Origin: Escherichia coli
GTDB taxonomy: Bacteria; Pseudomonadota; Gammaproteobacteria; Enterobacterales; Enterobacteriaceae
Length of the DNA: 64,000 nt
NCBI RefSeq assembly: GCF_041886205.1
Contig: NZ_CP169029.1
Strand: one strand, 5' to 3'
Part shown: piece by piece, positions 10,929 through 11,190 of the stretch
Numbering within the stretch: the stretch's first letter is position 1
Layout of the letters: every line of letters starts with the position of its first letter
Notes under the pieces: model-generated
What the model saw: the letters and a program-made list of their open reading frames with translations, nothing else
Told to the model about the DNA's origin: nothing
Database searches by the model: none
Program-made: the position numbers and the translations under genes

Positions 10929-11190
10929 AAGGAGTCCCTCCGCACTGTCTGAAACAGTACAGAAATGTCTTCAGGCGTGGCGAAGCCTTACCTGAAGGTA
11001 ATAAAGCTGAGCAGGGACGTTAAAACGTCACGGCCTTACGCATCCGGTAACGCCGTGAAAAGACGGGCTTACCGGAAAAGTTTTAATCTCCGTCGAGGGA
11101 GAGGCGTGGGATCAGGTTCCATATAACCTCCGGTAAGTGAAAAAAGCGCCGCAAATAATAAGGAGAATCCAATAATATTCGTAGCATCTA
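10929..11190 (-). promoter_or_regulatory. mgtA 5' leader (Mg2+- and proline-responsive), contains mgtL
   Basis: Long untranslated leader between the treR-mgtA divergent promoter and mgtA, holding the Pro-rich leader ORF; extent is approximate. Confidence 0.6.
11069..11122 (-). CDS. mgtL: mgtA leader peptide MgtL (17 aa, Pro-rich)
   Basis: Translation [17 protein letters not shown] at the C-terminal end of track ORF 11069..11410. Confidence 0.8.

Follow-up and report, generated by a model that had tools for sequence, protein, structure and literature searches.

The mgtL-mgtA regulatory leader of Escherichia coli: promoter, leader peptide, alternative RNA folds and the disputed role of Rho

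Locus and identity of the leader

Here we present an analysis of positions 10929-11190 of a 64,000-nt stretch of Escherichia coli DNA (the window). This segment is the 5' leader of mgtA and lies on the minus strand between the divergent genes mgtA and treR (Table 1). Its lower boundary, position 10929, is the base just before the mgtA ATG, and its upper boundary, position 11190, lies no more than 2 nt from the probable transcription start at about 11192, which was placed by promoter geometry and Salmonella numbering. The regulated gene is identified by its product, which scores 1605.7 bits against the equivalog model for magnesium-translocating P-type ATPases, TIGR01524 (cut-off 610.75). On the opposite flank, TreR is encoded at 11307..12254 on the plus strand, followed by TreB.

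The first-pass annotation of this DNA had recognised an mgtA leader carrying the leader peptide MgtL, and three matches bear it out: the TIGR01524 mgtA downstream, a RefSeq mgtL at the same coordinates, and a full-length match to the Rfam family RF01056, located in the 5' leader of mgtA on the same strand (11137..11022) with a covariance-model score of 125.8 bits (E = 5.5e-25), the gathering score being 40. The 17-codon reading frame that it quoted is present as described, from the ATG at 11122 to a stop codon ending at 11069; the strand, which it had left unstated, is minus. It had also called the leader intact, and in a base-for-base comparison all 264 nt of the leader proved identical to those of K-12 MG1655. 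Within the 471 bases compared, the differences from MG1655 are confined to 11264, 11260 and 11211, upstream of the transcript, and 10869, inside mgtA. A megablast search with 10850-11320 found the segment, annotated mgtL, in 5425 of 5426 complete E. coli genomes. The K-12 locus (b4702/b4242) thus has the same leader, ORF coordinates, PhoP box, stem-loops A, B and C, and divergent treR. Because the leader is identical to that of K-12, it is an ordinary and already-known element; it belongs to the E. coli core genome, and there is nothing new in this copy.

Table 1. Features of the mgtL-mgtA leader and its surroundings, in the direction of transcription
Feature	Position	Strand	Leader nt	Remarks
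PhoP box	11216..11232	-		GGTTTATCGTTGGTTTA; direct repeat (T/G)GTTTA-N5-(T/G)GTTTA, oriented toward the -10
Putative -10 hexamer TATTAT	11198..11203	-		Putative assignment read from the sequence; -35 position occupied by the PhoP box
mgtA 5' leader	10929..11192	-		264 nt; 5' end estimated to about 2 nt
Rfam RF01056 match (Magnesium-II / Mg sensor)	11022..11137	-		Full-length, model 1-115 of 115
Stem-loop A	11068..11137	-	56-125	11-bp outer helix of CUUACCGGAGG with UUUCCGGUAAG; in the MFE and the Rfam consensus structure
mgtL Shine-Dalgarno GGAGG	11127..11131	-		4 nt upstream of the ATG; in the 5' arm of stem-loop A
mgtL	11069..11122	-	71-124	17 codons and stop; RefSeq mgtL at identical coordinates
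Stem-loop C (alternative)	11043..11076	-	117-150	3' arm of A with 5' arm of B
A-B linker	11057..11067	-	126-136	CCCGUCUUUUC; pyrimidine-rich, 45% C, 9% G; candidate part of a rut site
Stem-loop B	11030..11056	-	137-163	'Off' / high-Mg2+ hairpin; in the MFE and Rfam structures
Small hairpin directly 3' of B	11016..11029	-	164-177	GACG UUUUAA CGUC; C-rich tract on its 3' side
C-rich, G-poor segment after B	10995..11024	-	169-198	Candidate second half of a rut site
Published Term-seq 3' end	10977	-	216	MG1655 4467576, -49 from mgtA; coordinates converted
mgtA Shine-Dalgarno GGAGGG	10936..10941	-	252-257	Read from the sequence
mgtA	8232..10928	-		Mg2+-importing P-type ATPase, 898 aa; regulated gene; RefSeq annotation mgtA

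A predicted PhoP-activated promoter

Upstream of the transcript lies a PhoP box, which is the single match to the PhoP-box consensus in the window, where shuffled sequences lead one to expect 0.02. It is separated from the TATTAT hexamer by exactly 12 nt (11215..11204). In the published classification of PhoP-dependent promoters, from which the consensus is also taken, 'architecture I' denotes a box about 12 nt upstream of the -10 that replaces the -35 element (PMC3335776), and the sequence here shows the attributes of that architecture (class II): a single direct box, the 12-nt spacing and overlap with the -35 position. From this arrangement we infer a PhoP-activated promoter of architecture I (class II), with PhoP binding predicted from the motif. 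A sigma-70 scan that needed both hexamers found no promoter in the leader region, as expected given that class II PhoP promoters do not have a -35 (PMC3335776), and this result is not counted against the promoter.

The MgtL reading frame

The mgtL frame reads ATG GAA CCT GAT CCC ACG CCT CTC CCT CGA CGG AGA TTA AAA CTT TTC CGG TAA, and the RefSeq product at 11122..11069 is 'mgtA regulatory leader peptide MgtL', with b4702 as its MG1655 counterpart. The peptide begins M-E-P-D-P-T-P-L-P, which places proline at codons 3, 5, 7 and 9 and acidic residues at positions 2 and 4 (the EPDP motif). The UAA stop codon is located within CCGGUAAG, in the 3' arm of stem-loop A.

The program-made ORF listing gives mgtL only as the tail of a 113-aa mechanical ORF that begins at an upstream GTG. 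We found nothing in support of this in-frame extension and take the RefSeq ATG as the true start; the mechanical antisense ORFs that overlap the leader (among them 10965..11126 on the plus strand, 53 aa) were set aside on the same ground. Published work in E. coli MG1655, which used toeprints together with mgtL:yfp and mgtA1-5aa:yfp fusions, showed that mgtL is translated, that this translation has an inverse effect on mgtA, and that the EPDP motif destabilises the ribosome (PMC11282234). Since the MG1655 leader and the present one are the same, those experiments concern an identical sequence.

Mutually exclusive folds of the leader RNA

The 264-nt leader RNA has a minimum free energy (MFE) of -87.3 kcal/mol, with z = -4.27 relative to dinucleotide shuffles, and its MFE structure contains stem-loops A and B. 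The outer helix of stem-loop A encloses mgtL from the Shine-Dalgarno sequence to the stop codon, with two small hairpins inside it; folded alone, A reaches -21.2 kcal/mol. Stem-loop B carries a G142.G158 mismatch in E. coli. Stem-loop C, which draws one arm from each of the others, is mutually exclusive with A and with B and represents the 'on' state, that of low Mg2+ or a stalled ribosome. Alone it folds to -18.6 kcal/mol, a value that none of 1000 shuffles equalled.

Constrained folding of this leader segment gave -39.5 kcal/mol for the A+B state vs -35.3 kcal/mol for the C state. With the 5' arm of A blocked, the MFE structure shifts to C; it does so too in nascent transcripts 150-160 nt long, from which the 3' arm of B is still missing.

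Further downstream, the mgtA Shine-Dalgarno sequence pairs with nt 175-180 in the MFE structure. This helix is kept by conserved sequence only; as a long-range element it is without covariation support, and we do not claim it.

Conservation of the frame and of the folds across Enterobacteriaceae

The comparative set came from one DNA-pattern scan of a species-representative genome collection, which returned 120 loci. The search pattern required CCGG and M-[DE]-P-[DE]-P-x-P, and the sampled leaders are those that match it. Conservation at these positions is therefore circular, and conservation of the MgtL N-terminus is not used as evidence here. A short MgtL-type peptide is encoded at 101 of the 120 loci. 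The other 19 are chance matches in unrelated phyla, having neither the short ORF nor a downstream mgtA, and were excluded. An MgtA homologue follows on the same strand at every one of the 94 mgtL-like loci with enough flank, vs 0 of the 19 chance matches.

In the alignment of this leader with 97 other distinct Enterobacteriaceae leaders, all 98 keep a frame of 15-17 codons that closes with Arg-stop, and their indels are always multiples of three. Among the residues that the pattern left unconstrained, Leu or His occupies position 8 in 97 of the 98 leaders and Pro occupies position 9 in 67, and residues 10-15 vary freely. The alignment columns of the mgtL Shine-Dalgarno sequence are invariant or nearly so, the adjacent CCGG having been fixed by the search pattern. 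At the other end of the frame, the terminal Arg-stop codons (CGG UAA) are embedded in the invariant arm CCGGUAAG, which is common to A and C.

The same leaders were scored against the E. coli structures, so that the structures tested derive from one member of the alignment. For A and B together, 95.5% of the cells are paired vs 36-49% when the partners are slid, and the covariation score was reached by none of 500 shuffles. The outer helix of A is 96% paired in the 97 distinct leaders, with one pair compensated from CG to UA in six sequences. B is 98% paired, and seven of its ten pairs change on both sides across species. For C, 87-89% of the cells are paired in the 97 distinct leaders vs 12-48% in the slid controls, and the C segment has z < -2 in 96 of 98 leaders. 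Covariation in C shows no excess, with three pairs changed on both sides vs 2.7 in shuffles, which is expected when each arm must pair with two different partners. C thus rests on thermodynamics and conservation, not on covariation, and A and C are maintained mainly by strict conservation. Median energies across the leaders are -41.5 kcal/mol for the A+B state vs -34.6 kcal/mol for the C state.

The region from the mgtL stop codon to mgtA was aligned for 96 leaders; this alignment is very gappy, with 373 columns for 77-265 nt. In the RNAalifold structure of these 96 leaders the hairpin at nt 164-177 is paired in 92-96 of them, with variation among GC, AU and GU pairs. This hairpin lies at the edge of the Rfam model. 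It is one of two places where compensatory variation extends beyond that model, the other being nt 231-253, the last hairpin before the mgtA Shine-Dalgarno sequence.

The G at nt 142 is found in E. coli and E. albertii, and as a result B has a G.G mismatch there, as does C in its consensus register. This Escherichia-specific mismatch weakens both stem-loops.

The termination step and the question of Rho

The first-pass annotation had described the leader as a proline- and Mg2+-sensing attenuation system and had named the absence of the alternative stem-loops on folding as the outcome that would speak against it. On folding, A, B and the exclusive C are all present, and they are kept across Enterobacteriaceae. 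The description itself is supported, with two refinements: the leader has no intrinsic terminator and so is not an attenuator of the classical intrinsic-terminator type, and Mg2+ sensing is now ascribed largely to the translation of MgtL. A scan of 10850..11350 for intrinsic terminators, on both strands, found 0 terminator-like sites, and no U-run follows stem-loop B. We accordingly rejected a trp-type attenuator for this leader, which has no GC-rich terminator hairpin with a U-run.

What the leader does have is a pair of pyrimidine-rich tracts flanking B. The A-B linker is exposed in the A+B state and lies inside hairpin C in the alternative state. The segment after B (nt 169-198) has a C/G ratio of 3.0, a maximum for 30-nt segments of the leader that it shares only with nt 67-96, in mgtL. 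By base composition, the two tracts are a candidate Rho entry (rut) site. In the homologous corA leader, stem B is flanked by pyrimidine-rich rut regions, and the mgtA leader is called highly similar to it (PMC11552253).

Termination in the mgtA leader is Rho-dependent in Salmonella, while for E. coli the published evidence conflicts, and Rho dependence there is disputed. It is conceivable, though we think it unlikely, that E. coli keeps the same anatomy and represses mgtA at high Mg2+ by a route other than Rho termination: by RNA decay, by a Rho-independent stop or pause near nt 130 or nt 216, or by occlusion of the mgtA ribosome-binding site. The main observation in this direction is a ChIP-qPCR experiment with Rho R66S, in which E. 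coli mgtA had a termination score of 1.0 even though RNA polymerase occupancy drops along the gene (PMC5499598). Its authors offered two explanations, that another mechanism operates in E. coli or that R66S has no effect on this particular terminator. A 2025 review, which repeats this result, says of the mechanism that it 'may not be conserved in E. coli' (PMC12360218). Term-seq data further place a 3' end at MG1655 4467490, which corresponds to 11063 (nt 130), immediately past stem-loop A and with a U-run ahead of it (PMC7815308), and the pairing of the mgtA Shine-Dalgarno sequence with nt 175-180 in the MFE structure would offer a means of occlusion. Against this stands the other 3' end of the same work, at nt 216 (-49), which is marked Rho-dependent in its E. 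coli data from Term-seq with bicyclomycin (PMC7815308, Supplementary file 3). No intrinsic terminator motif was found in the leader, the occluding helix is without covariation support, and reporters and Northern blots in MG1655 have been read as consistent with mgtL-driven transcription termination (PMC11282234).

A more speculative variant, to which we give rather little credence, is that E. coli silences mgtA partly differently from Salmonella. A Rho-independent stop or processing site at nt 130, or occlusion of the mgtA Shine-Dalgarno sequence by the C-rich tract at nt 175-180, would then contribute; the nt 164-177 hairpin might act as a further switch, and the G142 mismatch might tune the balance. 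The conflict over Rho in E. coli leaves the identity of the feature untouched and limits the firmness of the last step of its mechanism.

Proposed mechanism and the sensing of Mg2+

The mechanism that we propose combines the present analysis with published work. Low periplasmic Mg2+ would lead phosphorylated PhoP to act at the PhoP box, in place of a -35 element, and transcription would begin at about 11192, as the motif and the literature suggest. The first 165 nt of the transcript can then adopt either A+B or C, exclusively, as the folding and comparative results above show. The choice between the two would be made by ribosome loading on mgtL inside A, a step drawn from literature that is part Salmonella and part MG1655. 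Translation through EPDPTPLP to completion, for which sufficient cytoplasmic Mg2+, Pro-tRNA, EF-P and EttA would be needed, should allow A+B to form. Stalling or drop-off at the proline and acidic codons, when Mg2+ or proline is low, would make the 5' arm of A unavailable and let C form; this step is consistent with the blocked-arm folds computed here.

With A+B formed, the pyrimidine-rich tracts on either side of B would be single-stranded and transcription would stop prematurely near nt 216, before mgtA is reached. In the C state the tracts would be sequestered and the polymerase would read into mgtA, the role of Rho in E. coli being a disputed extrapolation. Direct stabilisation of A+B by Mg2+ may contribute in addition.

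Several published observations underlie this scheme. The exchange between A/B and C and Rho termination are described in PMC11552253, and the roles of proline codons 3, 5, 7 and 9, of EF-P and of B vs C in PMC6460261. Efficient translation of mgtL gives A+B and low mgtA expression, and stalling or drop-off at the proline and acidic codons gives C and read-through (PMC11552253, PMC6460261). In MG1655, EPDP destabilises the ribosome at low Mg2+, an effect that EttA opposes, and an mgtA reporter is no longer expressed once Glu2 and Asp4 are neutralised (PMC11282234). A Mg2+-dependent switch between leader conformations also belongs to the literature summarised in PMC11552253. We consider it highly probable that the feature is the native E. 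coli mgtL-mgtA regulatory leader and that it works in the manner outlined above.

How Mg2+ itself is sensed admits of a different reading, in which the leader is a pure Mg2+ riboswitch: binding of Mg2+ to the RNA would stabilise A+B, and mgtL translation would be dispensable for the Mg2+ response and serve the proline signal only. We regard this as improbable. Rfam does class the element among Mg2+ riboswitch aptamers, the thermodynamic ground state is A+B to begin with, and in vitro the Mg2+-dependent folding of the Salmonella mgtA RNA was by itself enough to modulate Rho termination (PMC11552253); the same source regards the choice between RNA binding and mgtL elongation as the sensor as still unsettled. 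Later work, however, ties Mg2+ control to the translation of mgtL, through its proline and acidic codons, bL31 and EttA (PMC11552253, PMC11282234), and includes the loss of mgtA reporter expression on neutralisation of Glu2 and Asp4 (PMC11282234). The ORF, its Shine-Dalgarno sequence and the pattern-free codons 8-9 are also kept across about 97 species, which one would not expect of a dispensable ORF, although constraint at the RNA level overlaps these positions. On the current literature (PMC11552253, PMC11282234), the sensing of Mg2+ is largely Mg2+-dependent destabilisation of the ribosome on the EPDP motif of MgtL, besides or instead of RNA binding.

That mgtL is an accidental reading frame within a structured leader that is not translated has next to no probability: the frame has only 17 codons and is listed merely within a longer mechanical ORF, but it has a GGAGG Shine-Dalgarno sequence at the proper spacing, is kept across the aligned leaders as a 15-17-codon Arg-stop frame with whole-codon indels and is annotated as mgtL, and the published reporter fusions and toeprints that demonstrate its translation in MG1655 (PMC11282234) have already refuted such a reading.

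Relation to other leaders

The dissected prototype is the Salmonella enterica mgtA leader, which is also 264 nt long, with mgtL at nt 71-124, proline codons at 3, 5, 7 and 9, and the same alternation of A+B vs C (PMC6460261). The two differ in the peptide, which in the Salmonella subspecies recovered is MDPEPTPLPRWR(I/V)FLFR; in the G at nt 142, with its G.G mismatch in B and C, in E. coli and E. albertii; and in the standing of Rho dependence, which is established in Salmonella and disputed in E. coli.

The corL-corA leader of Salmonella and E. coli shares a uORF in stem A, an OFF state (A+B) vs an ON state (C+D), rut regions flanking B, and inverse expression of uORF and transporter. It differs in that it controls the CorA channel and is not PhoP-dependent, and in that corL has a single conserved proline and a UUG start (PMC11552253). 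The trpL, hisL, leuL and pheL attenuators resemble the mgtA leader in that the translation rate of the leader peptide picks the hairpin and sets read-through into the operon. They differ in having an intrinsic terminator (GC hairpin with a U-run), of which none was found in the mgtA leader, and in their signal codons, which form a run of the cognate amino acid, whereas those of mgtL are interspersed proline and acidic residues.

Conclusions

This locus serves as a positive control, in which a textbook regulatory element was recognised from raw sequence and confirmed at base resolution. The mgtL-mgtA leader is among the best-studied cases of one short RNA that integrates the status of Mg2+, proline/Pro-tRNA, EF-P and EttA, and it does so by means of leader-peptide translation and alternative RNA folds.

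Structural features of the mgtA leader

Two small hairpins, one directly 3' of stem-loop B and the other just before the mgtA Shine-Dalgarno sequence (Table), lie at the 3' edge of, or past, the Rfam Mg-sensor model (RF01056), and both exhibit compensatory changes among 96 enterobacterial leaders. At the other end of the leader, an irregular hairpin (nt 4-48, counted from the inferred transcript start) precedes GCGCUUUUUUC, which lies a short way 5' of stem-loop A. The resemblance of this arrangement to a terminator is superficial, and it fell short of the criteria of the terminator scan.

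Within mgtL, the 17-codon leader-peptide ORF, codons 10-12 (window 11087-11095, - strand) read CGA CGG AGA, all three of which are rare arginine codons in E. coli. Because these codons overlap the inner hairpin of stem-loop A on its 3' arm, RNA folding may dictate which codons are used.

A 3' end detected by Term-seq in E. coli, at MG1655 position 4467490, corresponds to window 11063 (- strand), or leader nt 130 (PMC7815308). It is located 5 nt past stem-loop A, with CUUUU immediately after it. Transcription may pause or terminate weakly there, or the RNA may be processed, an event outside the standard model.

Mobile elements and other RNA matches

The 1310 bp at window 52984-54293 form a complete IS3-family insertion sequence, bounded by 25-nt terminal inverted repeats with 92% complementarity and carrying two overlapping transposase frames and a frameshift pseudoknot. 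Its end sequence, TGAACCGCCCCGGG, is presumably similar to that of IS629/IS1203. Since an IS200/IS605-family ORF is found just upstream, the two suggest a small mobile-element cluster. Elsewhere in the window, the matches to ES239, the RpsF leader, STnc450 and naRNA4/CssrE all exceed the Rfam gathering score.

Table. Features located in the window, with supporting matches or leader positions
Feature	Window position	Strand	Evidence or leader position
Small hairpin 3' of stem-loop B	11016-11029	-	leader nt 164-177
Small hairpin before mgtA SD	10940-10962	-	leader nt 231-253
5' hairpin / GCGCUUUUUUC site	11140-11153	-	leader nt 40-53; outside Rfam Mg-sensor model
204-aa ORF	51772-52386	+	IS200/IS605-family transposase model NF033573, 146 bits
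orfA	53038-53364		NF033516 IS3 transposase match
orfB	53361-54251		NF033516 IS3 transposase match; overlaps orfA
ALIL frameshift pseudoknot	53319-53435		Rfam match, inside IS3-family element
ES239 sRNA	41809-41931	-	Rfam, 157 bits
RpsF leader	56443-56527	-	Rfam, 110 bits
STnc450	37138-37195	+	Rfam, 77 bits
naRNA4/CssrE repeat	21185-21262	-	Rfam, 86 bits
naRNA4/CssrE repeat	27425-27503	-	Rfam, 67 bits

Sequence variation in and upstream of the leader

The variant at window 11211, a difference from K-12 MG1655 upstream of the transcript, is also present in the three genomes that are 100% identical over window 10850-11320 (megablast, complete E. coli genomes). Inside the leader, nt 142 (window 11051, - strand) is G in E. 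coli and E. albertii and C in most Enterobacteriaceae; near this position, A or T replaces it in some Escherichia rows of the alignment. G142 creates a G.G mismatch with G158 in stem-loop B, as well as one with G125 when hairpin C, the alternative structure that excludes stem-loops A and B, is paired in its consensus register. G142 may act as a tuner of the mgtA leader switch in the E. coli/E. albertii lineage.
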